Shown piece by piece: positions 4,630 through 54,092 of a stretch of 54,092 nucleotides of DNA. Each line of letters begins with the position of its first letter. The first letter of the stretch is position 1. The stretch comes from Lentisphaerota bacterium (GTDB lineage: Bacteria; Verrucomicrobiota; Kiritimatiellia; CAIQIC01; Lenti-01). The DNA is taken from assembly GCA_012511885.1 (NCBI GenBank), contig JAAZFE010000045.1, positions 1 through 54,092 on the forward strand, written 5' to 3'. The translations under genes and the position numbers were made by a program. The notes under the pieces are model-generated. The model searched no databases, had not been told where the DNA came from, and saw only the letters and a program-made list of their open reading frames with translations.

Positions 4630-4847
4630 ACCTGGATTATGCACGCGACAAGTCCGGCCCGGATGCGAGGCGTGCGGGGTGAAGCTGTATGGACAACCTG
4701 CGAACCCCGCAGAACAAAGCAGACGGGTTGGAATCGTCGCGCCTTGGGTCAACATGGATAAAAACCGAATTTTCATGATTATTTCCGCATCATGCTGCCC
4801 TGCAGCAAATAAAAATACTTTCATCCATGTTGATGAATAATCCAGGC
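4630..4847 (+). mobile_element. MITE-like element, copy 1 (218 bp, TA-flanked, 11-bp terminal inverted repeats)
   Basis: TA(4628-4629)-ACCTGGATTAT...ATAATCCAGGC-TA(4848-4849). Alignable along its length to copies at 23027, 23892 and 53825. Confidence 0.85.
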
Positions 4848-6958
4848 TAATCCTCCGCGCCGGAGTCCGCCGGCCAGCCCTCCGGCGGAGTCCAGATCCA
4901 CAACTGGAACACCTTTTCGTTGTCCTGAACCGCGAAACGGTTGCCGCGCCTGCTGTGGATCACCGTGGGATAGGCATAACGAATGGGCTCCATGAGCGGC
5001 ACCGCGCCGGGCATGGCAAAAGGATAAATCCCGCGGCCGTGCTCCGTGCTGGTCAGCCACAGCGCCCGGCGGCTGTTCCGCTCTTGCGCGCGGCGCACCA
5101 CCCGGAGAATGTCGCGCTGCGTCCCCGCGTTCCGGCTCTTCCAGAGCAGCTCCCCGTTCAGCACATCGTGCCCCTCCGCCAGCATCAGCGGCGTCCCCCA
5201 CAGCGCGGCATCCGCCACCACGAGATCGCCCGGCTCAAGCCGCGAGGCCACCGCGGCCAGCGTGGCCGTCAACCCGCGGTAATCCCCCACCCGCGCGGCC
5301 GCCCGGCTCAAACCGAACGACTGCCCCGCCGCCGGCGCCAACACCAGCAGAACCAGCCACCACCGCCCGCCCCCCCGCGCCCGGACAAGCTGCACGAGCC
5401 CCAGCACGGCGGCCGCCTGACCCAGCGCCAGCAGCGGCACCCAGAACACCACAATCCGCCGCAGCGCCCAGGGATAAACCGCCGCGATGCGCGGGTTCCA
5501 GAACAGGCTCAGGCAAACCATCCCCAATCCCAGCACCGCAATCCTGGCAGGCTTCATGGACGGGTCGGGCTTCCAGAAAAGCCAGGCCAGCCCCAGCCCC
5601 GCCCAGACCACCGTCAGTGGCCCCTGAAACGGAATGACCCGGCACAAATAGCTCAGCGACCGCCCCACCAGCGGGCACGCGGACACCGCCCGGAACAGGG
5701 CGGGCCGAAAAGCCGTCACCACGCTGGCCAGCCCCATCAACGCCAGAAGCAAACTCACCGCCGCGGCCGCCAGCAAAATCCACCGCACGCTCCGCGCGCG
5801 CCACTCCGCCGGCAGCGGCTGCCGGATAAAGGCCCAGCTCAGCGCCGCGCCGCCCACCACAATCATCATGATGACCCGCAGGGCCTGATCCTTGTCCTCC
5901 AGCCGCGTCACCGTGACCCCCGCGAAACTCAAATTCCAGGCGATAGCCAGCCCGATCGCCGCAAAGCACCAGCCGATTCTCTCCCGGCGGCCCGGCGCTC
6001 CCGCCCCCCCCTCCACGAAGGCCGCCACCACCAGGATGATGGTGGCCAGCGCCGCGACATTCAGGTGATTGATCGTGGCCGCGAACAGCGCCGCCATCGC
6101 GCCCAGCGGCATCCGGGCCCCGCGCCCGGCGGCCTGCGCGTAGAGCAGCGCGCCGCCCAGCAAAAGAAGCTGATAGAGCATTTCCGAGGTGGGCAGGCTT
6201 TGGTGATACCACCACAGCGGCGCCAGCAGCCAGCAGGCCAGCACCAGCCAGCGCCGCCACCCGCCCATCGCGATGCCATCGCCCAGCGCCAGCAGCGGGA
6301 TCAGCCCCCACAAGGCCAGAATGGCCGGCAGGCGCACCAGCAAACCCACCCCCCCCATGCGCAGAAACCACGCGCCGCAAAGCGACGTCAGATGGAAAAA
6401 GTACACCGGCAGCGATCCGTCCTCCGTCCGCACGGGCACGCCGGGCAGAATCTCCCGATAACGATCCTCCGCCGTCGAAAGCAGCACGCGCTCTTCCTCG
6501 GTCATGTCCGCATAGATCGAATCCACGCGCGCCTGCAGCCCGCCCTGCCGCGCCACGGCCACCGCGTTGTTCTGATAAATCCCCGGGTCCCACCCCCCCG
6601 CCAGCCACTCGGAGCGCGGCGGACTGCACAGCGGAATCGCCGTCAGCGCCCACACCAAAACCAGCGCCTGAGCCGCGCGCCCCGCAAGCGGCCGCCAGTC
6701 GGCTTCTCGTTTGAACGCCCACAACACCCCCCCCAGCACCACCAGGGCCCAGAGCGCCCAGTCCGCCGCCGGCGACCACGCCTCCAGCGACGCCAGCGCC
6801 ACCACCGCCAGGAGATTCAGCAGCACGCCCAGCGCCAGAACCCGCCCCATCCGCGCCAGCCACCCCCCGCCCCCCCCCGCCCAGACGCCGCCGGCCAGCG
6901 CCACCCGCGCCGTCAGCAAAAAACTGCCCGCGATCAGCTCCATGAGGGGATCCGCCAT
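4847..6958 (-). CDS. Large polytopic integral membrane protein (703 aa), possible GT-C-type glycosyltransferase
   Basis: Long ORF with more than 12 hydrophobic segments and a soluble C-terminal ~150 aa. It lies directly downstream of a Dpm1/GtrB-like GT2. No specific family recognised. Confidence 0.75.
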   Translation of the reverse strand: MADPLMELIAGSFLLTARVALAGGVWAGGGGGWLARMGRVLALGVLLNLLAVVALASLEAWSPAADWALWALVVLGGVLWAFKREADWRPLAGRAAQALVLVWALTAIPLCSPPRSEWLAGGWDPGIYQNNAVAVARQGGLQARVDSIYADMTEEERVLLSTAEDRYREILPGVPVRTEDGSLPVYFFHLTSLCGAWFLRMGGVGLLVRLPAILALWGLIPLLALGDGIAMGGWRRWLVLACWLLAPLWWYHQSLPTSEMLYQLLLLGGALLYAQAAGRGARMPLGAMAALFAATINHLNVAALATIILVVAAFVEGGAGAPGRRERIGWCFAAIGLAIAWNLSFAGVTVTRLEDKDQALRVIMMIVVGGAALSWAFIRQPLPAEWRARSVRWILLAAAAVSLLLALMGLASVVTAFRPALFRAVSACPLVGRSLSYLCRVIPFQGPLTVVWAGLGLAWLFWKPDPSMKPARIAVLGLGMVCLSLFWNPRIAAVYPWALRRIVVFWVPLLALGQAAAVLGLVQLVRARGGGRWWLVLLVLAPAAGQSFGLSRAAARVGDYRGLTATLAAVASRLEPGDLVVADAALWGTPLMLAEGHDVLNGELLWKSRNAGTQRDILRVVRRAQERNSRRALWLTSTEHGRGIYPFAMPGAVPLMEPIRYAYPTVIHSRRGNRFAVQDNEKVFQLWIWTPPEGWPADSGAED

Positions 6959-13458: not shown

Positions 13459-14175
13459 ATGAAGAAAATTGCTTTGGTAACGGGCGGCGGCAGCGGAATC
13501 GGACAGGCTCTGGCTCAACGGCTGGCCGCGGAAGGCCACTTTGTTTTCCTCGCCGGGCGCAACGCGCAAAAACTGGAAACCACCTGCGCGTTGATCGGGC
13601 AGGCCGGCGGCCGGGCCGAGGCGCTCACCGCGGACCTCGCCGACGAAGCGAGCATCCGCCAACTGGCCGCCCAAATCAAGGCGCGGACACCAACCCTGGA
13701 TGTGCTGGTCCACAGCGCCGGCTGCTTCCGGATGGGAACGCTGGAGTCGGCGCACATCGCCGACTTGGACGACCTCTATCAGGTCAACCTGCGCGCGCCT
13801 TATCTGCTCACCCAGCTGCTGTACGCCCTCCTGCTCAAGGCGGCGGGGCAGATCGTGTTCATCAATTCGACCGCCATCCTGAATCCCGGCGCGAACTGGG
13901 GCGCCTATGCCGCCACCAAAGCCGCCCTGCGGGCCATGGCCGACAGCCTGCGCGCGGAAATCAACCCGCGCGGCGTGCGTGTTCTCACCGTCATTCCCGG
14001 ACGAACCGACACCCCCATGCAGGAGCAGGTCCACCAGCTGGAAAACCGCCCCTATCAAGCCGACCGCCTCATGCGCCCCGACGATGTCGCGCTCATGACC
14101 ATGCAGGCCCTGAACCTGCCCCCAAGCGCGGAAGTCACTGAAATCGTCGTCCGCCCTGCCCAAAAACTGAGCTAG
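13459..14175 (+). CDS. Short-chain dehydrogenase/reductase (classical SDR)
   Basis: TGGGSGIG cofactor motif, NSTA, and YAATKAAL catalytic YxxxK. Confidence 0.92.
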   Translation: MKKIALVTGGGSGIGQALAQRLAAEGHFVFLAGRNAQKLETTCALIGQAGGRAEALTADLADEASIRQLAAQIKARTPTLDVLVHSAGCFRMGTLESAHIADLDDLYQVNLRAPYLLTQLLYALLLKAAGQIVFINSTAILNPGANWGAYAATKAALRAMADSLRAEINPRGVRVLTVIPGRTDTPMQEQVHQLENRPYQADRLMRPDDVALMTMQALNLPPSAEVTEIVVRPAQKLS

Positions 14176-14195
14176 TCTGGATAATTCATGCAGGC
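14175..14195 (+). repeat. 21-bp remnant carrying both termini of the MITE-like element, TA-flanked
   Basis: TA-GTCTGGAT|AATTCATGCAGGC-TA, compared with element ends GCCTGGATTAT...ATAATTCAGGC. The left TA is part of the SDR TAG stop. Confidence 0.35.
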
Positions 14196-14214
14196 TAGCC
14201 AGCAGGCCGCCTGC

Positions 14215-22274: not shown

Positions 22275-23027
22275 ATGAAACCACCCACCACCCGGCTCCT
22301 TTTGTGCGTCATCGCGCTGATCGCGGCCACGGGCGCCAACACCCGGGCCGAACGGCGGGAATACTCGCTCTTCGGCTACGAACCCGCTTTCGAAATCAAC
22401 GACCGCCTCGAAATTGGCGCCCGTATCTACCGATTTTCCATCCGAGACGATCGGCGGACCGGCCCCAACGGCCCGAGGAACTCCAATCCCCGTGTCAACT
22501 ACATTGGCAGTTTGTGGGGGCTCGACGAGATCCAGGACTATATTCCTCGCCTCTATGTACAGTATGCCTTCACCCCCTACTTTGGTGCCGGGGTCTCCTA
22601 CGACCGGCTCGCCGCCAAAACCCTGGACACCCCAGTAAAAGAGAAAAACTGGAAACCGGGCGATGGGGATATCCAGATCCGCGGGCCAATGCTCTATTTA
22701 TTTGCCCGTTATCCCAACATGACCCGGTTCACCCCGTTCGGCGAGCTGGGCTGGATCTACTACTACGCCGACTTCAAAGTGATGGACGAGTGGGCCTCGC
22801 TCGGCCCCTATCACCGGTTTTCCGTGGACAACACCCACGCCTATTTCCTGGGCCTGGGTCTCAACACCGCCCTGACCGACCGCTGGCACGTGAACGCCTA
22901 CTGGCGGCGCACCTTTGAGGCCGACGTGGATGTCCGGGTCTATTTTCGAAAAGAACGTCTCAGCCGCAAAGGAACTTTCCCCATGGATTCCGATGTGTTC
23001 GGCCTGGGCGTATCCTATCTGTTCTAG
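22275..23027 (+). CDS. Outer-membrane beta-barrel protein (small, about 8-10 strands)
   Basis: Signal peptide MKPPTTRLLLCVIALIAATGA, alternating aromatic/hydrophobic strands, and a C-terminal GLGVSYLF beta-signal. GGAGG lies 8 nt upstream. Confidence 0.75.
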   Translation: MKPPTTRLLLCVIALIAATGANTRAERREYSLFGYEPAFEINDRLEIGARIYRFSIRDDRRTGPNGPRNSNPRVNYIGSLWGLDEIQDYIPRLYVQYAFTPYFGAGVSYDRLAAKTLDTPVKEKNWKPGDGDIQIRGPMLYLFARYPNMTRFTPFGELGWIYYYADFKVMDEWASLGPYHRFSVDNTHAYFLGLGLNTALTDRWHVNAYWRRTFEADVDVRVYFRKERLSRKGTFPMDSDVFGLGVSYLF

Positions 23028-23245
23028 CCTGAATTATGCACGCGACAAGTCCAGTTCAGATGCGAGGCGGGCGGGGCGAAGCTGTATTGGCATACAGCGA
23101 ACCCCGCCGAACAAAGCAGATGGACTGGAATCGTCGCGCCCTTGGTCAATATGGATGAAAAATGATTTTTTTATGTTTATTTCCGCATCATGTTGCCCTG
23201 CAACAAATAACAATGTTTTCATCCATGTTGATGAATAATTCAGGC
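23027..23245 (+). mobile_element. MITE-like element, copy 2 (219 bp)
   Basis: TA(23025-23026)-GCCTGAATTAT...ATAATTCAGGC-TA(23246-23247). The first base completes the TAG stop of the upstream gene. Confidence 0.88.
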
Positions 23246-23268
23246 TAGATGAATCGAGGATAGCTCTC

Positions 23269-23892
23269 ATGTGGTTGCTGCGATGGATGGGCGCCGGAAT
23301 GGCCTGGGGACAAAAGGCCCGCAATCTGTGCGTGCAGCATTATGTAGCCGCCCGCCTCGGCCAAAAAGGACGCGGCCTCTCCATCGGCGAAGGCGTCAAA
23401 CTCCTCGGCCCCCGCCATATTCGCGTCGGCAACGATGTGACCATGGCTCCCTTCGTCATCTTGCGTGCCATGACCGCCTACCCCTGGACGCAACCGCCCC
23501 AAACCTTCTCCCCGGAAATCGTCATCGGGGACAACTGCTTCATCAACCGCTTTTCAGAAATCTCCTGCGTCCGACGGGTGGTGATCGGCGCGAACACCAT
23601 GATCGCCCAAAACTGCCTGATCGCCGACCACAACCACGGCTATGAGGACCCTCAATTAAGCGTCCGCGCCCAACCCCTGACTGCTGAGGGCGAAGTGCAC
23701 ATCGGCGCGGACTCGTGGATCGGCGCCAACTGCACCATTGCCGGCAATGTCCGCGTTGGCAGGCACTGCGTCATCGCCGCCCACTCTGTGGTCATCCATG
23801 ACATCCCAGACTATTCCGTGGCCGCCGGCTCGCCCGCCAAAATCATTCGGCAATACGATCCGGCCGACGGCGTCTGGCGGAAAATGGTGTAG
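23269..23892 (+). CDS. Left-handed beta-helix (hexapeptide repeat) sugar O-acetyltransferase
   Basis: Repeated [LIV]G hexapeptides: IGANTMIAQNCLIADHNHG...IGADSWIGANCTIAGNVRVGRHCVIAAHSVV. Confidence 0.88.
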   Translation: MWLLRWMGAGMAWGQKARNLCVQHYVAARLGQKGRGLSIGEGVKLLGPRHIRVGNDVTMAPFVILRAMTAYPWTQPPQTFSPEIVIGDNCFINRFSEISCVRRVVIGANTMIAQNCLIADHNHGYEDPQLSVRAQPLTAEGEVHIGADSWIGANCTIAGNVRVGRHCVIAAHSVVIHDIPDYSVAAGSPAKIIRQYDPADGVWRKMV

Positions 23893-24110
23893 CCTGGATT
23901 ATGCACGCGACAAGTCTAGTTCAGATGCGAGGCGGGCGGGGTGAAGCTGGTTTGGCAACCAGCGAACTCCGCAGAACAAAGCAGATGGACTGGAATCGTC
24001 GCGCCTTGGGTCAACATGGATGAAAAATGAATCTTTTGCACTCATTTCCGCATCAAGATGCCCTGCAGCAAATAACATTATTTTCATCCATGTTGATGAA
24101 TAACCCAGGC
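23892..24110 (+). mobile_element. MITE-like element, copy 3 (219 bp)
   Basis: TA(23890-23891)-GCCTGGATTAT...ATAACCCAGGC-TA(24111-24112). The next gene's ATG follows 7 nt after the element end. Confidence 0.88.
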
Positions 24111-25357: not shown

Positions 25358-25427
25358 AAATTATCCGCATCATGGCTCACTAGAACAGGATATGACTTTT
25401 TTATCCATGTTGATGAATTATTCAGGT
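25358..25427 (+). repeat. Truncated, diverged right-end fragment of the MITE-like element (copy 4)
   Basis: AATTATCCGCATCATGG...TTTTTATCCATGTTGATGAATTATTCAGGT followed by TA. It matches only the right ~70 bp of the full copies. Confidence 0.6.
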
Positions 25428-27469: not shown

Positions 27470-28231
27470 GAACCGCCGGGTTGAGGATCAACTACAAGCG
27501 CCAGCCGCGGGGGCCAGGTTTCGGCCACGGCGCGGCAGAACTGGATGGGCCTGTTTCGAGAAGATGGGACGAACGCACTTCACCCGAAATGTTGCGGTCG
27601 CAGTTGCGGCACGAAACGCAAACTTACGAAGAGGCAGGAACAAGTCATTCAACTTCAGCCTGCGGACAAGGATCCGGTGCAGCTCAAACGGCCTTTTATG
27701 CTGTGGTCGCGGTTCTCCGCAGGACAGCGGTATGGCCCCAAAAACTCGCGTCAACGTGATCTCCGCCTTTAGCAATCGCGGTGATCTTCGATTCATATGT
27801 CCTACAAGGGTGGCATGAAGGCCTCGACCTTCACGCGATTCTTGAGCCGATTGATCCGCAGGGCAGCGCAGAAGATCTTCTTGATCGTGGACAATTTGCG
27901 AATCCAGCGGAGCGTGGGTGAGCGCAAATGGGTGGCCGGACGGGCGGATCGAATAGAGTTATTCTACTTTCCTCCCTATTCTCCGGAATTCAATCCTGAT
28001 GAAAATCTCAACCCGGCCATAAAAGCGCAGTTGAAAAACCGTCCCTGGGGCTTCGACCGCAAGGCCATGCATTCCGCAGGCCATGCATTCCGCATGGAGG
28101 CAGCAGCGGAACCTGGACGTACTATTCTTTCTCCTCTCACGATGCAGCCGGATTTGAATGATCTCGAATTGGATCAGCTGGAAGGGGATTCCCTATCAAA
28201 TGGCCTTATTGAATATTGCTTATGTAGGTAG
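27470..28231 (+). pseudogene. IS630/Tc1-mariner-family DDE transposase, frameshifted and N-terminally truncated
   Basis: Pieces lie in three frames: KLTKRQEQVIQLQ..DPVQLKRPFMLWSR; NVISAFSNRGDLRFI; then KASTFTRFLSRLIRRAAQKIFLIVDNLRIQRS...IELFYFPPYSPEFNPDENLN (DDE core). No intact ORF. Confidence 0.8.
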
Positions 28232-28335: not shown

Positions 28336-29280
28336 TTATGCGAAACTCAACAATTGAAACGGGCACGTTGCCAGCAGGGGCTCCAGATTGATCCGTGCCG
28401 GCGTCCAAAGCGATCGGCGTGCCCAAATCTCTTCTGGCGAAGTCAATGACGTCACACAGAATGGCTCCATTCCCTCTTTGCCAATGGATGCGTAAAAATC
28501 GTCGAATTTGAATCTCCACCATCCGGGACTGGGGGGCTCAAATTCCACCCAAATTGCAGGAATTTGATAAGCTTCCGCAACAATCAATCCGTGCAACGAG
28601 GAAGACACGATCATATCGCAACTGGTAATGTCATCAATGACGTCACGCCAATCCCCATACCCGTTCACTGCAATCTTTCTTGCCTCTGACCAGGCGGCTA
28701 TTCGTTTCAAGGCAGGAGCGTTGCGCTCGTGGTCGGCATAATTCGGAATCACTCCGATTCGAGCACGGGACCGGGGTGCTGGGGTGTAAAAGCGAGGTAA
28801 AAGCAGTGCCGGATCACCGTAGACGGCGGGACATTCGATTCCACGGTCCAATAACCATTGCCGGGTCAATGGCCCTCGCACCGCCAGGATTTTCCGTGGC
28901 TTGGAAATTAAGTCCCAACCGGGCTCGTTGTTGATCAATCCGGCGCCCCAAACCACCGTTGTCTCCAAGGGGAAAAAGGTGAGCGTACTCCCGATACACA
29001 GATAGTTCTCCAGCCCCATCTGACGAAAAAGCCATGTGTTGGGACATCGCAGCACGTGTTTTCCCGTGGCTGCCTCGAAAAAGTATAAGTTAATATCGTC
29101 GCCCCAATTCCGCCGTTTCCGTGTCCCAAACGTCCACATTAAGATGGACTTGGATGTCCGGAATCGATTCATCCAAAGGCACGCCAACCCTCGAGGCAAA
29201 CCGCGCACCTCGAATTCCACATGATGTCCCGCTCTCCAGACTGCGCGCCCCCATGGCCTTTTCTGCATCCACTGTTTCAT
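28336..29280 (-). CDS. Polysaccharide pyruvyl transferase family protein
   Basis: NWGDDINLYFF...CIGSTL...LAVRGPLTRQWLLDRGIECPAVYGDPALLLP...IVSSSLHGLIVAEAYQIPAIWV. The start is placed at ATG 29280 to avoid overlap; the longest ORF extends to 29301. Confidence 0.85.
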   Translation of the reverse strand: MKQWMQKRPWGRAVWRAGHHVEFEVRGLPRGLACLWMNRFRTSKSILMWTFGTRKRRNWGDDINLYFFEAATGKHVLRCPNTWLFRQMGLENYLCIGSTLTFFPLETTVVWGAGLINNEPGWDLISKPRKILAVRGPLTRQWLLDRGIECPAVYGDPALLLPRFYTPAPRSRARIGVIPNYADHERNAPALKRIAAWSEARKIAVNGYGDWRDVIDDITSCDMIVSSSLHGLIVAEAYQIPAIWVEFEPPSPGWWRFKFDDFYASIGKEGMEPFCVTSLTSPEEIWARRSLWTPARINLEPLLATCPFQLLSFA

Positions 29281-29285
29281 GTGTT

Positions 29286-29906
29286 TCAAAAAGGCATGCA
29301 TATGCCCCCTGCTTCAAGCGCAAATGGCTTCTGCAACATCCGGACGATTCCCGCCACCAGGAACAGCCAGCCCGTCCAGTTCCAAAGCACATAGGTCAGC
29401 GAAGCCGCCGCCCAGGCGCCGGCCGCGACGATGCCAACGAACCATAGATCGTTCTGTTGTAGTTGGATGGTCCGCACCAGCATCAATTTCGCGCGGCCCA
29501 GCGAATAATAGATGCGGTAGGACAGCCAGGAGGTCAGCCCCAGCGCCAGCCTCACCAGAATCATGCGCAGCAAACCATGCTGCCGGCCCGGCATCATTCC
29601 CGGCAGCCGCCGCAACAGGAATTTCAACCCGCCCAGCGAAGACAAAATCGCGATGAATGTGAGCGTCGTGGTGGCCAGGGTCAGGCGGCCATACAGGTCC
29701 TTCGGCAAATACTGGGTCAACAGCCGCATCCGCAGCGGATTCAGCAAAAAATACAATCCCATGTAGCCGAACGATGGCAGGACAAAGAGCAACAGACGGC
29801 CAAAAGGGCGGCCGCCCGATTGGATTGGATGCGGTTCATTCATTCTGTGCAGCAAGCGTTGATTGGCCCAAAACCTAGCATTCCGCCTCTTTGGAAACGA
29901 GTCCAA
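29286..29906 (-). CDS. Membrane protein resembling only the N-terminal ~5 TM segments of a MOP/Wzx flippase (possibly a truncated gene)
   Basis: LLLFVLPSFGYMGLYFLLNPLRMRLLTQYLPKDLYGRLTLATTTLTFIAILSSLGGLKFLLRRLP resembles flippase N-termini, but the ORF is 206 aa versus ~450-510 aa for full-length proteins. Confidence 0.5.
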   Translation of the reverse strand: MDSFPKRRNARFWANQRLLHRMNEPHPIQSGGRPFGRLLLFVLPSFGYMGLYFLLNPLRMRLLTQYLPKDLYGRLTLATTTLTFIAILSSLGGLKFLLRRLPGMMPGRQHGLLRMILVRLALGLTSWLSYRIYYSLGRAKLMLVRTIQLQQNDLWFVGIVAAGAWAAASLTYVLWNWTGWLFLVAGIVRMLQKPFALEAGGICMPF

Positions 29907-42147: not shown

Positions 42148-44811
42148 TTATTTTTTTACCAGCCTGCCTGAAACGTTTACGACATCGCTTGTGGCAACCT
42201 GCCGATTTGAACCATGAACAACCAAAGGAAGTGGCAGGCTTGGCGCTTCCGGGAGGCCGTTGTTCCATATCATCAGGGCGTTAAGCGCGCCCTGTCTCCA
42301 CGGAATGAATAAGTCTCGATCCAATGTCAGCTGATCCCAAGCCGGATCCAATTCAACCCATATATCAGGGGATTGTGTCTCGATATGCAGCACGAGCACT
42401 TCGCCAAAGTGTGGATACATGTCCGGCTCCAAGTATATCAGGCCTCTGAAACCAACCTCATCCGTTGCCCTCATCTCTTCCGCTATCTCTATTCGATAGG
42501 ATAACGGCGATAAGGTTAATCCATTGACCCCCATTGTAGCATACCGTTGCCTGACTGATGTCACCGGTACGAAGGAATTGCGCATTGTCGTCTTGGGAAA
42601 CAAGGCAATGTCTCCGTGGGCGAGGCGTGTGAATGTAAATGGCTTAAGGCTATATATGCCGCGACGCCCCAATTGTCGATAATATGGATCTGGTATGTAC
42701 ACGGACGCCGCCGATTGTCCAAGGGTCGATAAATCAAAAAAATTGTTCAACCGTTCCAGCGCAGGGTCGATAATGCCTAGCCGTCGTTCCGGCCTGGCGG
42801 TCCATACTGTATAGGTCGAACGCTTAAAGACCCGAGCCAAAGGTGCCGTCCCATTCGCCACGGAATAAACAAAGTGCCCCAAAAGAAGTATCGCACAGCT
42901 GGCCGGCACAATGATTCCCAACTCCCTCCGACAACGCGCAGCATCCCGCCCTAAAACTCCAATCCCAGCGCCAAACAGAAGGGATACCAGCAACTGAGCG
43001 GGCATTACATTTCGCCAGTCGTAGGCCGCCCGATGGAGCCAAACAACAACCAGCACCGCAGCGCCAATTGCTATAACCCAGAGCCGTTTGTCACGTGTCC
43101 CTCCCCAGAGGAGGCAGCCCCCCAGAAGAATTGCAGATATGAGATTCTGGCTTGCCCGCCCGGTACCATATGTCCGCCTCGCGGGAATGCCGTGATAATT
43201 TCCAATATAGCGATTCCCCGCCTCTTTAGGGCCTATTTTGTTCAAATGAGGATAACCCGCAGATATTGTGAAACTGTGCAGTCTTGGATCCCGGTCGGCT
43301 ATTCCTGTGCGATCCAGAATGAATTGATGGGCGTAGAATGGCGCAACCAGGAACAATCCGCACACCAAGCCAATTCCTGTAATTCGTCTAATACTTCCAG
43401 GGACACATCTCGTCCGGGCTAGACTGCTCGAAAATCCAAATAATATCGCTCCCGCGATCAAGCCCTGGGCTTTTGTGAAAAACATGGCATAAAAACCCAA
43501 ACTTATCGGCACAGCTTCCAGATGGATGCCCCTCCCGCATGACCAACCGAGCGATCCTCGACTTGCCAACAAGGCGCCAACGGCACTGATCATCGCGAGC
43601 AGCGGCCATTCGACATATCCGGAAAGCATTCCTCCAGTAAACAGATCGCCTGCGAAAAGGAATAGGAGCCCATAACCCCAGGCATAACCCAATGCATTCA
43701 ACCATCGGATCAAACCAAGAGCAGCCACGACCGGATACATCCACATGGTGGCTTGGAGTAATATCTGGAAAGAAGAGTAGCTCTTCGTCCACTCGTCCGT
43801 GATTTTGTAAAACACGGAGTGGATACTAGGGAGTAGTTGCGGATAGCTACCCATCAAATAGGTGCCTATCGCATGTCGCTCCGCCATGTCGCATGCCCAT
43901 TTGTCCCAGGAAACAACGGCATCCCACCATAGGAACGGTTGCCCGGCCACCTGTGCAGAACGACTCATAATCAGAACCCCCACGACTGCAATCGAAAGCA
44001 GTTCGGGTATTTTAGCTCTCCCACACCAGGCAGTATAACGTCCCCACAAACCCGGGACGCCATAACGCGGAAAAGAATAGATTCCGCCAGCCAGCACGAT
44101 TAACAGCCAAAGGATCAGTATGGTTTTGGTATATGCCCCACACATGTACAAGGTGAAGATGACCAACGACGTGATCGCGCCACTGCTCAACCACACCATT
44201 AAGATATGATCCAGAAGATGCTTGGATGAAAACCCAAGCAACCTGTGCAGGCATAGTCCTGGCGCAATGAACACGGCTGCAGCCAAAAGGAGAAAACCAA
44301 TCAGCTCCCACCTCCCATTGACGGCTGTGCTCCACCATTGGAATCCGGCGCCAAGCAGTAATCCGCTCAGCAGAACAGGCAGAGCGTAAACAACGATTTG
44401 GGAAAATACTTTCCTTATAAATAATCTCTGCCTTGGGCAGAAGGCCAATATTAGCACTGCCAGCATTGAGACCCCCATGGCCACACGCATCTGGAACAAG
44501 TGCTGTTTGAGGGCCCGAAATCTTTTCCCCTCTTCCGATCTGTGCAGGATCTGGCGCGTCCATTCAATATCCCATTTCCCAGAGAGAAGATGTTGAACGT
44601 GGTTGTGAAGCCCCCCGGCATCCGCCTCCCGCCCCAATTCTGTGCGATAGGCATCCTCCACCAATACTCGATAGGCATCCTCGGCGACAGTGTCCTGCCC
44701 TCGTATTGATTCTCCGAATACGCCTTGATCCAAAGTCAAGAACACTGCAAATAACAAAAATAAATATTTTATTTTATGGCAGGATAATGCTCTCAACCAT
44801 TTGGTTGTCAC
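42148..44811 (-). CDS. Very large polytopic membrane protein with N-terminal DUF4214-like domain; unknown function (A/T-richer gene)
   Basis: DUF4214-like AYRVLVEDAYRTELGREADAGGLHNHVQHLLSG, then more than 14 hydrophobic segments and a ~230-aa C-terminal soluble domain. The proposed GTG start at 44811 overlaps the upstream TGA (GTGA). The longest ORF starts at 44871. Confidence 0.75.
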   Translation of the reverse strand: MTTKWLRALSCHKIKYLFLLFAVFLTLDQGVFGESIRGQDTVAEDAYRVLVEDAYRTELGREADAGGLHNHVQHLLSGKWDIEWTRQILHRSEEGKRFRALKQHLFQMRVAMGVSMLAVLILAFCPRQRLFIRKVFSQIVVYALPVLLSGLLLGAGFQWWSTAVNGRWELIGFLLLAAAVFIAPGLCLHRLLGFSSKHLLDHILMVWLSSGAITSLVIFTLYMCGAYTKTILILWLLIVLAGGIYSFPRYGVPGLWGRYTAWCGRAKIPELLSIAVVGVLIMSRSAQVAGQPFLWWDAVVSWDKWACDMAERHAIGTYLMGSYPQLLPSIHSVFYKITDEWTKSYSSFQILLQATMWMYPVVAALGLIRWLNALGYAWGYGLLFLFAGDLFTGGMLSGYVEWPLLAMISAVGALLASRGSLGWSCGRGIHLEAVPISLGFYAMFFTKAQGLIAGAILFGFSSSLARTRCVPGSIRRITGIGLVCGLFLVAPFYAHQFILDRTGIADRDPRLHSFTISAGYPHLNKIGPKEAGNRYIGNYHGIPARRTYGTGRASQNLISAILLGGCLLWGGTRDKRLWVIAIGAAVLVVVWLHRAAYDWRNVMPAQLLVSLLFGAGIGVLGRDAARCRRELGIIVPASCAILLLGHFVYSVANGTAPLARVFKRSTYTVWTARPERRLGIIDPALERLNNFFDLSTLGQSAASVYIPDPYYRQLGRRGIYSLKPFTFTRLAHGDIALFPKTTMRNSFVPVTSVRQRYATMGVNGLTLSPLSYRIEIAEEMRATDEVGFRGLIYLEPDMYPHFGEVLVLHIETQSPDIWVELDPAWDQLTLDRDLFIPWRQGALNALMIWNNGLPEAPSLPLPLVVHGSNRQVATSDVVNVSGRLVKK

Positions 44812-45944
44812 GGCATGCACCCAGCGACTTTCACTAATACCTGCCATAAGCCGGCTGCGCTGGCCTCCCACGTAAAACTGGCGGCACGGGTCTTGGCCAT
44901 ACGTACCAGACGCGTCCGATCCTCACGGGGCAGTTGAATCGCCTCCCGCATGGCCGCGGCGAATGCTGCTTCATCGCGGCCGTCCGCATAGCGCACCGCG
45001 TCCCCGCCCACTTCCGAAATGGCGCCCTCCCGCGTGGTCAGCACCGGCACCCCCGCCGCCATCGCTTCCAGCACCGGCAGTCCGAACCCCTCATACAGCG
45101 ATGGGAAAACAAACCAGTCAGCCCCCTGATAAAGCGGACGCATACTCTGACAAGGCAATTCCCGCAGACGCACCACATCTCCCCGGGGGATCCCTTCCAG
45201 CGCGGCTTTCACCTCGGCTTCTCCCCGCCGCGGCTTGCCCACCAGCACCAGCCGATGCGGAAACTCCCCCGTCAACCGGCCGAAAGCCCGAATCAGCAAC
45301 GCGAGGTTTTTGTGCGGATAGCTGTGCGCCACGCATAGCAGATAAGGCCGCCCCCGCACCTCCCCGGGCGGCGGTCCCGCCGCCTCCCCGAACGCCGGAT
45401 CCACCCCCGGATAAGTCACCGCAATCTTGGACGGTGCAATCCCGATAAAACTTGCGATTTCCGACTTCGAAAACTCGGAAATGGCCACCACCGTCCGGCT
45501 CCGCCACGCCGCCAGCGGATACAACACATCCATCGTGCGTGCCGCCAGCCAGGATACGTCCTCGGGAAAGCGTTTGTACTGCATGTCCAGCAAAGTGGCC
45601 ACCTGCGGACAGGCACAAACGGCCGGCGCCGTATATCCCGGCGACCACAGCACATCCACGCACGCCCGCTTGACCAACCAGGGCAACCGCAACTGCTCGA
45701 CCACAATCCGGGAGTAACGGTTGGTCGCGGCCACTCGCAATTCGATCACCTCCGCCCCGGGAAATTCAGCGCGCAATTTCTCCGCGTTCTCCAAGTTGGC
45801 GAACAACACCAGCTCCGGTACGTCGTCCCGGCGTGTCAGCGCTCGCAAAGTCTCCAGCAAATAGGTTTCCGACCCCCCCACTTCGCCAGGCAGATAAAAC
45901 AGAGTGTTGACTCCCAGACGCACGGCATCAAGGCCTTCGGACAA
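44808..45944 (-). CDS. Family 1 (GT4-like) glycosyltransferase
   Basis: GVNTLFYLPGEVGGSETY...; C-terminal FPSLYEGFGLPVLEAMAAGVPVLT. Start is TTG at 45944 or GTG at 45923. Confidence 0.9.
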   Translation of the reverse strand: MSEGLDAVRLGVNTLFYLPGEVGGSETYLLETLRALTRRDDVPELVLFANLENAEKLRAEFPGAEVIELRVAATNRYSRIVVEQLRLPWLVKRACVDVLWSPGYTAPAVCACPQVATLLDMQYKRFPEDVSWLAARTMDVLYPLAAWRSRTVVAISEFSKSEIASFIGIAPSKIAVTYPGVDPAFGEAAGPPPGEVRGRPYLLCVAHSYPHKNLALLIRAFGRLTGEFPHRLVLVGKPRRGEAEVKAALEGIPRGDVVRLRELPCQSMRPLYQGADWFVFPSLYEGFGLPVLEAMAAGVPVLTTREGAISEVGGDAVRYADGRDEAAFAAAMREAIQLPREDRTRLVRMAKTRAASFTWEASAAGLWQVLVKVAGCMP

Positions 45945-53824: not shown

Positions 53825-53971
53825 ACCTGAATTATGCACGCGACAAGTCCAGTTCAGATGCGAGGCGGGCGGGGTGAAGCTGTATTGGCATACTGCGAAC
53901 CCCGCAGAACAAAGCAGATGGACTGGAATCGTCGCGCCCTTGGTCAATATGAATGAAAAATGATTTTTTTA
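53825..53971 (+). mobile_element. MITE-like element, copy 5, left ~147 bp only
   Basis: TA(53823-53824)-ACCTGAATTATGCACGCGACAAGTCC... is colinear with copy 2 up to ...ATGATTTTTTTA, then switches to unrelated A/T-rich sequence. Confidence 0.8.
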
Positions 53972-54027
53972 CACTACCATCCCATAGGGATGTCATTTTG
54001 AGCTGGGGAAGCGGATAAAAAAGAGTG

Positions 54028-54087
54028 TTGGTCTTGATTTTGTGTGCCTGTAGCCTACAGGTATTATGAAAAAAAACTCAAGACCAA
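54028..54087. repeat. Nested inverted repeats in A/T-rich DNA at the window edge
   Basis: TTGGTCTTGA (54028-54037) pairs with TCAAGACCAA (54078-54087). Inner palindrome CCTGTAG-C-CTACAGG at 54047-54061. Confidence 0.5.
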
Positions 54088-54092
54088 GACCA

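Follow-up and report, generated by a model that had tools for sequence, protein, structure and literature searches.

Organisation of the element

The window analysed here is the whole 54,092-nucleotide contig JAAZFE010000045.1 (positions 1 to 54,092, forward strand) of the Lentisphaerota bacterium assembly GCA_012511885.1. It matches a contig of an anaerobic-digester metagenome and contains a 217-bp repeat (positions 23028-23244 in the reference copy, copy 2) as three full copies, two partial copies and one 19-bp remnant. The repeat is a transposable element of the miniature inverted-repeat kind (MITE), a non-autonomous cut-and-paste DNA transposon with terminal inverted repeats (TIRs) and a 4-bp target-site duplication (TSD), and covariation among its relatives argues that the large hairpin in its left half, domain 1, is a selected, strand-specific single-strand structure belonging to the transposon.

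Copy 2 follows a gene at 22275-23027, the stop codon of which is the TAG of the left CTAG duplication (23024-23027, unstranded). All further parts are given on the plus strand. The left TIR of 13 bp (CCTGAATTATGCA, 23028-23040) adjoins the domain 1 hairpin (23041-23138), which is composed of helices P1 (23041-23046/23133-23138) and P2 (23050-23058/23121-23129), a GA/GA loop, P3 (23061-23063/23116-23118), P4 (23070-23076/23102-23108), a GAA/GA loop and P5 (23081-23087/23092-23098) with an apical loop at 23088-23091. A 7-nt linker (23139-23145), weakly Shine-Dalgarno-like in some subfamilies, separates the hairpin from the left subterminal inverted repeat IR2_L (TCAATATGGATGAAAA, 23146-23161), the 5' arm of the stem of a previously proposed "domain 2". 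An A+T-rich variable middle (23162-23215), which includes a small hairpin (23191-23196/23200-23205) and is swapped wholesale in other element variants, leads to the right subterminal inverted repeat IR2_R (23216-23231, the 3' arm of that stem), the right TIR of 13 bp (TGAATAATTCAGG, 23232-23244) and the right CTAG duplication (23245-23248, unstranded).

TIRs of the form CCTGGATTAT.CA / TGAATAATCCAGG were present in all full copies. The four flanking bases are specific to each site yet match each other (CTAG, CTAA, TTAG, CTAT, TTAC, TTAT, GTAG and others), and because they are variable but matching, the duplication was taken as 4 bp with the consensus NTAN (mostly YTAR) and not as the 2-bp TA of IS630. 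In a table of 96 strand-wise entries, which holds every element on both strands and some spurious TIR pairings, the duplication is perfect in 45 (about half of the copies) and differs by one base in most of the others. One element, bounded by a GTAG duplication of its own, was found inserted into another's hairpin, and tandem copies were found with CTAG in common. The small size (about 217 nt), the many dispersed copies and the absence of a coding signal are those of a MITE. A preliminary description of this DNA had read the fold as a structured RNA rather than junk MITE filler; given the TIRs, the 4-bp duplications and the nested and tandem insertions, this opposition is not supported, the hairpin being integral to a mobile MITE.

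Relatives in genomes and metagenomes

A pattern scan of species-representative genomes using the base pattern of domain 1 returned 0 matches. A scan of metagenome contigs yielded 84 loci, the true matches being nearly all from one digester assembly (LSQX01), and supplied 35 distinct full-length copies with 72-93% identity to copy 2 together with partial and rearranged copies; in all, about 50 dispersed copies were found beyond the window, in anaerobic-digester metagenomes. A second genome scan was carried out with the apical motif as bait, so that part of the apical sequence shared by its matches is imposed by the pattern. It identified one bona fide copy (L097) in a metagenome-assembled genome (MAG) of an uncultured Verrucomicrobiota and two copies of a distant sister family (L121 and L124) in a MAG labelled "Proteobacteria bacterium". 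These relatives make a Verrucomicrobiota host probable for the window. A protein-database search, in which a spurious open reading frame (ORF) of the element served as a proxy for its DNA, gave just two further MITE copies, and a covariance model of domain 1 gave 48 plus-strand matches. No match to the element family was found in the plasmid collection or among viral contigs.

The covariance model also scored, at 43 bits, a free-standing hairpin of about 100 nt in a Solirubrobacteraceae MAG (L115:2882-2983, minus strand). It shares the CGGGG-UGAA-stem-GAA-CCCCG core of the family, and its G-U wobbles fall on the corresponding strand. This hairpin has neither TIRs nor the GAGG/ACAAAGC loop motifs and was left unassigned; its likeness could reflect chance plus the search pattern, or a remote relationship.

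Fold and covariation of the domain 1 hairpin

The RNAfold structure of copy 2 comprises, in the lower part, CGCGAC/GTCGCG, a 3x3 loop, TCCAGTTCA/TGGACTGGA, GA/GA and TGC/GCA and, in the upper part, GGCGGGG/CCCCGCC followed by GCTGTAT-tggc-ATACAGC. Minimum free energies (MFE) of -56.8 kcal/mol (z = -6.9) and -91.2 kcal/mol (z = -8.4) were computed for domain 1 and for the whole element, respectively. All of the stems listed in the preliminary description were recovered both in the sequence and in the RNAfold structure of copy 2, and the copy differences quoted there are real (P2 TCCGGCCCG/CGGGTTGGA in copy 1, the apical stem GCTGGTT/AACCAGC in copy 3 and the small hairpin TGCTGC/GCAGCA in copy 1), as is the imperfect apical stem of copy 1, which is a mosaic copy.

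Compensatory change in domain 1, which had been proposed from three to four copies, persisted with tens of copies. Among 40 distinct domain 1 sequences 93.8% of cells pair and double changes occur in 8 pairs, against 4.0 ± 0.9 in shuffles (0/500) and 1-3 in slid-partner controls; RNAalifold independently gave the same five helices, with one further covarying pair at columns 39-63 (U-A to C-G). With distant relatives added (46 distinct rows), 92.8% of cells pair and double changes occur in 18 of 33 pairs, where shuffling gives 7.0 ± 1.4 (0/500) and the slid-partner controls give 2-6, although this alignment was fitted to the covariance model and therefore leans somewhat toward the structure. 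P2, the 9-bp stem, is the most variable part of domain 1, yet 96-98% of its cells pair and, in the main family, two to four standard pair types are seen at six of its nine pairs. A pyrimidine-pyrimidine mismatch in P5 is conserved in 40 of the 46 sequences, and domain 1 is kept in every element variant, even where the middle is replaced.

The sister family represented by L121 and L124 has the same layout as the main family with different sequences. Its lower stem is unrelated in sequence and pairs continuously over about 26 bp; since the AAG/AUC and GA/GA loops are missing from it, those loops are not essential. P3 differs from the main family by U-A to G-C and P4 by G-C to C-G and U-A to A-U. 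In the upper part both families have in common GAGG..., CGGGG-YGAA-GCUGUAU, AUACYGC-GAR-CCCCG and ...ACAAAGC, along with the P5 mismatch, a likeness that is partly imposed by the search pattern except for the flanking motifs and the interior of P5. The sister family is the strongest single piece of evidence for a selected fold.

It is very unlikely that the hairpin is a palindrome without function, kept by neutral DNA processes (recent amplification, gene conversion or intrastrand template switching) and with an apparent covariation inherited from few founders. The family is young, with a mean column identity of 92%, its mosaic copies point to frequent recombination, and many of the "compensated" cells trace to few subfamily events, all of which such an origin would accommodate. 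However, template switching predicts perfect Watson-Crick arms and not conserved loops with G.T wobbles on one strand only, the slid-partner controls, in which relatedness is kept, fall well short of the 18 pairs observed, and independent double changes were found in single lineages at columns 3-101 (C-G to U-A), 16-88 (to C-G) and 14-90 (to U-A). The retention of the fold on an unrelated lower-stem sequence in the sister family argues in the same direction.

Strand asymmetry

The distribution of wobbles is strongly asymmetric, with 71 G-U cells against 10 A-C cells on the plus strand. Mean MFE values are -53.3 kcal/mol for the plus and -46.2 kcal/mol for the minus strand, the plus strand being better in 39 of 40 copies; in L124, L121 and L115 it is better by 8.6, 15.6 and 12.2 kcal/mol, respectively. 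The preliminary description had proposed, from the G-U pairs, an RNA-level constraint in the plus orientation; the plus-strand advantage stands for the family as a whole but not for copy 2, in which the two strands fold about equally (-56.8 kcal/mol for plus and -59.1 kcal/mol for minus). The bias indicates that the folded species is one particular strand, either RNA or single-stranded DNA, and makes a double-stranded cruciform unlikely. The proposal of a structured RNA is upheld in so far as domain 1 is a selected, strand-specific single-strand structure and not random filler; sequence alone cannot separate RNA from single-stranded DNA.

Level of selection and host context

In domain 1, variant pair types found in at least two copies mostly keep pairing (15 of 22, with 11 Watson-Crick, 4 G-U and 7 non-pairs), whereas of those restricted to a single copy the majority, 13 of 21, do not pair. 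Domain 1 carries private substitutions at equal density whether its columns are paired (0.24 per column) or unpaired (0.26), and they are about three times rarer in domain 1 than in the A+T-rich middle (0.25 vs 0.80 per column), a difference that may stem from constraint, from gene conversion or from noisy alignment of the middle. Mosaic or recombinant copies with mismatched arms occur, among them copy 1 with its broken apical stem. Because shared variants mostly pair and private ones mostly break pairing, selection is placed between transposon lineages and not at host loci; the pattern fits a picture in which selection acts on an autonomous parent or on lineages that can still spread, while individual insertions decay largely neutrally.

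Among copies lying between co-directional genes, as delimited by a simple codon-usage gene caller, 7 are sense and 20 antisense, counts that are not independent. Both orientations were found in tight operon junctions, which hold at least ten copies, and the duplicated TAG/TAA is often the stop codon of the upstream gene. For some copies a position inside an operon junction implies co-transcription. Insertions lie very often exactly on a stop codon (23025-23027, 23890-23892, 4847-4850 and many other loci), and the duplicated TAG/TAA keeps the stop; as YTAR is probably rare outside stop codons and intergenic spacers in this G+C-rich genome, this preference would focus the MITE onto operon junctions.

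A role for host mRNA has been proposed for repetitive extragenic palindromic (REP), Correia, ERIC and bcr-type repeats, and the hairpin could in the same manner be a host-level RNA module that stabilises, processes or regulates the flanking mRNAs in operons. The copies in tight operon junctions, which are necessarily transcribed, the very stable fold, the scarcity of private substitutions in domain 1 and the possibility of read-through of an element without a terminator would suit such a module. It is nevertheless distinctly improbable: orientation is mixed, the antisense majority means that most copies would yield the weaker minus-strand fold, the private changes mostly break pairs and fall evenly on paired and unpaired columns, as given above, and recombinant copies with broken apical stems, including copy 1, persist.

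Domain 2 as part of the terminal repeat

The stem of "domain 2" in copy 2 is formed by 16 bp (23146-23161/23216-23231) around TGTTGC-cct-GCAACA. When the hairpin and linker are removed, the left end reads CCTGGATTAT-.CA-TCAACATGGATGAAAA, the inverted complement of the right end, which identifies the 16-bp stem as the subterminal part of a terminal repeat of about 30 bp. This repeat is interrupted by the hairpin on the left side only, TIR_R and IR2_R being adjacent. The outer stem is nearly invariant: a double change affects one pair (in 2 copies), and some subfamilies carry mismatches that are not compensated, namely A.C in 16 copies and G.A in 9 and 7 copies. The small inner hairpin has some compensated changes and is missing from one whole subfamily. 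The 16-bp stem of domain 2 is thus explained at the DNA level, and of the two-domain fold put forward in the preliminary description only domain 1 carries real covariation, the second domain having been overstated, as its covariation is weak and its stem is the subterminal repeat.

A DNA-level explanation was considered for the hairpin as well, which would act in cis as a spacer, extruded as a single-strand hairpin or protein-bound, that draws the left terminal and subterminal transposase-binding repeats as near to each other as those of the right end; in a variant of this idea, it would give the two ends different functions, as unequal spacers do in piggyBac. The hairpin lies exactly between TIR_L and IR2_L while TIR_R and IR2_R adjoin each other, the sister family is arranged alike, the hairpin is kept in all amplified variants despite the swapped middle, domain 1 has few private substitutions, and selection is seen on lineages that stay mobile. 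Cut-and-paste DDE transposition, however, uses double-stranded DNA, and a cruciform requires both strands to be paired, whereas the G.T wobbles fixed on one strand only are A.C mismatches on the other, and the conserved internal loops and Y.Y mismatch disfavour extrusion. We know of no precedent for such a hairpin requirement in transposition. A cis role at the DNA level is therefore regarded as unlikely.

Expression signals and coding potential

Neither a sigma-70-type promoter nor an intrinsic terminator was detected in or beside the element by a scan for such signals, the one terminator-like site lying outside it. Without a promoter or terminator of its own, the element is taken to be read through and not to be a transcription unit. 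Screening with cmscan against Rfam 15 returned no hit at the gathering score in the window and, at E <= 10, chance-level miRNA and lncRNA matches only; the distant copies likewise had no match in Rfam. This agrees with the preliminary description, in which the fold was not recognised as a named RNA family. Readings of the loops by eye as K-turn, loop E, C/D box, CsrA site or IHF site were set aside, as the 3+2 geometry or poor conservation across families does not fit them.

These results bear on the idea that the MITE carries an independent small-RNA gene with a promoter of its own and a product acting in trans. The strand specificity would favour it, as would the loop sequences GAGG... / ...ACAAAGC and GAA/GA common to the distant family and the GATTAT of the left TIR, which resembles a -10 element and lies just ahead of the hairpin base. 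The -35 element would, however, fall in variable flanking DNA, and part of the shared apical sequence is imposed by the search pattern; together with the lack of a sigma-70-type promoter, of an intrinsic terminator and of any Rfam match, this makes a trans-acting small-RNA gene hardly credible.

ORFs of 40 codons (domain 1) and 27 codons (domain 2) are open in most copies. A protein-coding role was rejected, since there is no codon-position periodicity (0.135/0.115/0.14) and the peptides are highly variable; with no third-position excess, the ORFs are taken as fortuitous. This probably also applies to the ORF of 27-28 codons that runs from the left subterminal ATG to the right terminal TAA (for example MKNDFFMFISASCCPATNNNVFIHVDE, 23155-23238) and is uninterrupted in about 25 of 35 copies. 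In all families an ATG follows the hairpin at 12-18 nt, preceded by a weak purine-rich stretch, a Shine-Dalgarno signal too weak to be counted as evidence.

Transposase family and the proposed autonomous parent

The 4-bp duplication and the YTAR/TTAA-like target fit both the IS1380/piggyBac and the IS5 group. Element ends beginning with CC (CC...GG) fit IS1380/piggyBac and not the usual ends of IS5, which start with GG/GA. The left TIR agrees with the ISEcp1 (IS1380) IRL in 9 of 14 positions. No such hairpin is present, however, in the 186-nt ISEcp1 leader, and no transposase of the IS1380/piggyBac or IS5 family was found in the window or the fetched loci. piggyBac has terminal and subterminal repeats with unequal spacing at its two ends, which recalls the layout of this MITE. 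An origin from IS630 or Tc1-mariner was ruled out by the 4-bp duplication and by the non-matching ends of the nearby DDE_3 pseudogene, a 144-codon remnant of an IS630-family transposase (27797-28231, plus strand) that retains the C-terminal catalytic region YSPEFNPDE and has no recognisable ends. Searches of the fetched loci by tblastn with this DDE_3 fragment and with the ISEcp1 transposase gave nothing.

The best explanation for domain 1, held tentatively, is that of a plus-strand RNA which the MITEs took over from an autonomous parent as a leader or cis element. The hairpin would be a structured leader near the left end of the parent, between the left terminal repeat and the transposase start, where it would control or insulate transposase expression in the manner of the 5' untranslated region (UTR) structures of IS200, IS10 and ISPpu9, and the MITEs would inherit it from this parent. 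A copy inserted in plus orientation and co-transcribed with a host operon (copies 2 and 3) would then add a very stable, non-terminating RNA hairpin to the transcript. We infer that the structure is RNA rather than single-stranded DNA, that it has the role of a leader and that the parent element exists. In IS200, IS10 and ISPpu9, transposase expression is limited by RNA secondary structure that lies upstream of the transposase start, at the left end of the insertion sequence (PMC4513863, PMC8450116, PMC5006887). Those leaders sequester the ribosome-binding site and are 20-70 nt long, whereas the present hairpin is about 98 nt with five helices and ends 12-18 nt ahead of the nearest ATG.

Several observations weigh against an inherited leader. 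Neither the window nor about 1 Mb of fetched loci yielded an autonomous element bearing these ends, and the DDE_3 remnant, the ends of which are unrelated to the MITE, is the only transposase remnant in the window. The Shine-Dalgarno-like signal after the hairpin is weak (mean -3.4 vs -1.7 kcal/mol at a right-end control). The deficit of private substitutions in domain 1 (0.25 vs 0.80) and the absence of any amplified variant without domain 1 would also suit a role in the MITE itself, and single-stranded DNA also tolerates G.T wobbles.

A bolder possibility, highly improbable on present sequences, is that a DDE-type (IS5- or IS1380/piggyBac-like) transposon encodes the hairpin as a functional structured RNA, common to families of different phyla. 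As a cofactor or regulator, it would be recognised by the transposase or by a host protein via the conserved core (GAGG ... CGGGG-YGAA-GCUGUAU / AUACYGC-GAR-CCCCG ... ACAAAGC) and would be needed for mobility or its control. If true, it would constitute a new class of transposon-associated RNA beyond the IS200/IS605, IS110 and CRISPR-associated cases.

Comparison with known repeats

Correia (NEMIS), ERIC and RUP-type repeats are short TIR-bounded elements at TA-containing targets that are co-transcribed and form long RNA hairpins; for Correia elements, RNase III processing, IHF sites and promoters are documented. The present repeat is likewise a short TIR-bounded element at a TA-containing target, but its TSD is 4 bp and not TA, and its hairpin is a local module in the left half, whereas theirs arises from pairing between the whole element's two inverted ends.

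MITEs in general fold as RNA hairpins (PMC3184786), and a close likeness in kind is offered by bcr1 of the Bacillus cereus group, a MITE-like, mobile non-coding repeat of about 155 bp with direct target duplications, which is often found in UTRs or operon junctions, is transcribed and is predicted to form two independent RNA stem-loops with compensatory changes, some copies losing stability (PMC3184786; PMC3446304). Both are dispersed mobile non-coding repeats with target duplications and a fold kept by compensatory changes. They differ in that bcr1 is unrelated in sequence, resides in another host phylum and has a 5-bp duplication, in that transcription has been shown for bcr1 while this MITE is known from its sequence, and in that here a single domain has real covariation and splits the terminal repeat one-sidedly.

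With REP sequences and REPINs the family has in common long imperfect extragenic hairpins, many copies, compensatory changes and the logic of single-strand folding. REPINs reportedly lack terminal inverted repeats and target duplications and bear GTAG or CGTC heads (PMC3733652). Membership of REP/REPIN was ruled out here, as the hairpin occurs only inside TIR- and TSD-bounded elements and its base differs between families.

Dispersed bacterial repeats that conserve a fold are thus already documented, and it is the one-sided hairpin splitting a terminal repeat that is unusual. The family adds a well-supported case, from a little-studied uncultured lineage (probably Verrucomicrobiota of anaerobic digesters), of a MITE with a structure under selection and with an indication of the level at which selection acts. 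The one-sided hairpin, present in the sister family as well, provides a handle for finding the autonomous element and makes it possible to ask whether structured leaders or cis elements are employed by a DDE transposon. In annotation, true small-RNA genes can be told from these repeats by means of the covariance model, and the repeats explain assembly breaks of this organism at these sites.

Other copies and neighbouring sequence

The remaining copies in the window all lie on the plus strand. Copy 1 (4631-4846, 216 nt, TSD CTAA) is placed in a minus-strand operon junction and is antisense to host transcription, and copy 3 (23893-24109, 217 nt, flanks GTAG/CTAG) lies between two plus-strand genes. 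A right-end fragment (25358-25426) consists of IR2_R and TIR_R followed by TTAA. The 19-bp remnant TCTGGATAATTCATGCAGG (14175-14193; whole span 14171-14197) is a stub of two element tips with CTAG on either side and looks like an extreme internal-deletion derivative of the MITE or a product of abortive excision.

Copy 5 (53826-53972) comprises the left TIR, the hairpin and IR2_L (147 nt) and thereafter gives way to unrelated sequence up to the window end, and all of the fetched assemblies that carry the last genes of the window break at this copy. The unrelated A+T-rich DNA beyond it (53973-54092, plus 14 nt in L008:1-14) contains an inverted repeat (TGTTGGTCTTGA / TCAAGACCAAGACCAACA) and an ATG opening a K/R-rich start of 13 aa (MKKNSRPRPTRRS), with no longer open frame there, and BLAST of this sequence against all fetched loci returned the same locus only. 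Since every assembly ends at this point, the DNA probably belongs to another repeat, though it could be internal sequence of an autonomous element.

On LSQX01253078.1 (L018:1-7953), at least six copies or fragments of the element cluster in a hotspot of 8 kb, including a tandem pair with one common CTAG and a 170-nt variant, the middle of which is a G+C-rich hairpin. A second repeated segment, TCGATGCAGCCTGACGACGGCCAAGCCCAATGC..AGACAAAACGGCT.CAGAAT.GATGAAAA, was found at L069:12064-12138 and L047:5984-6058, where it adjoins a degenerate right end (L069) and a MITE right half (L047); it may represent a related element with a different left module.

Two minus-strand ORFs of the window, 42148-44871 and 28336-29301, have a third-position G+C content far below that of the remainder (0.54 for 42148-44871, against 0.73-0.87 in other long genes) and were both rejected by the codon-usage caller; they may be recently acquired genes in a polysaccharide cluster.

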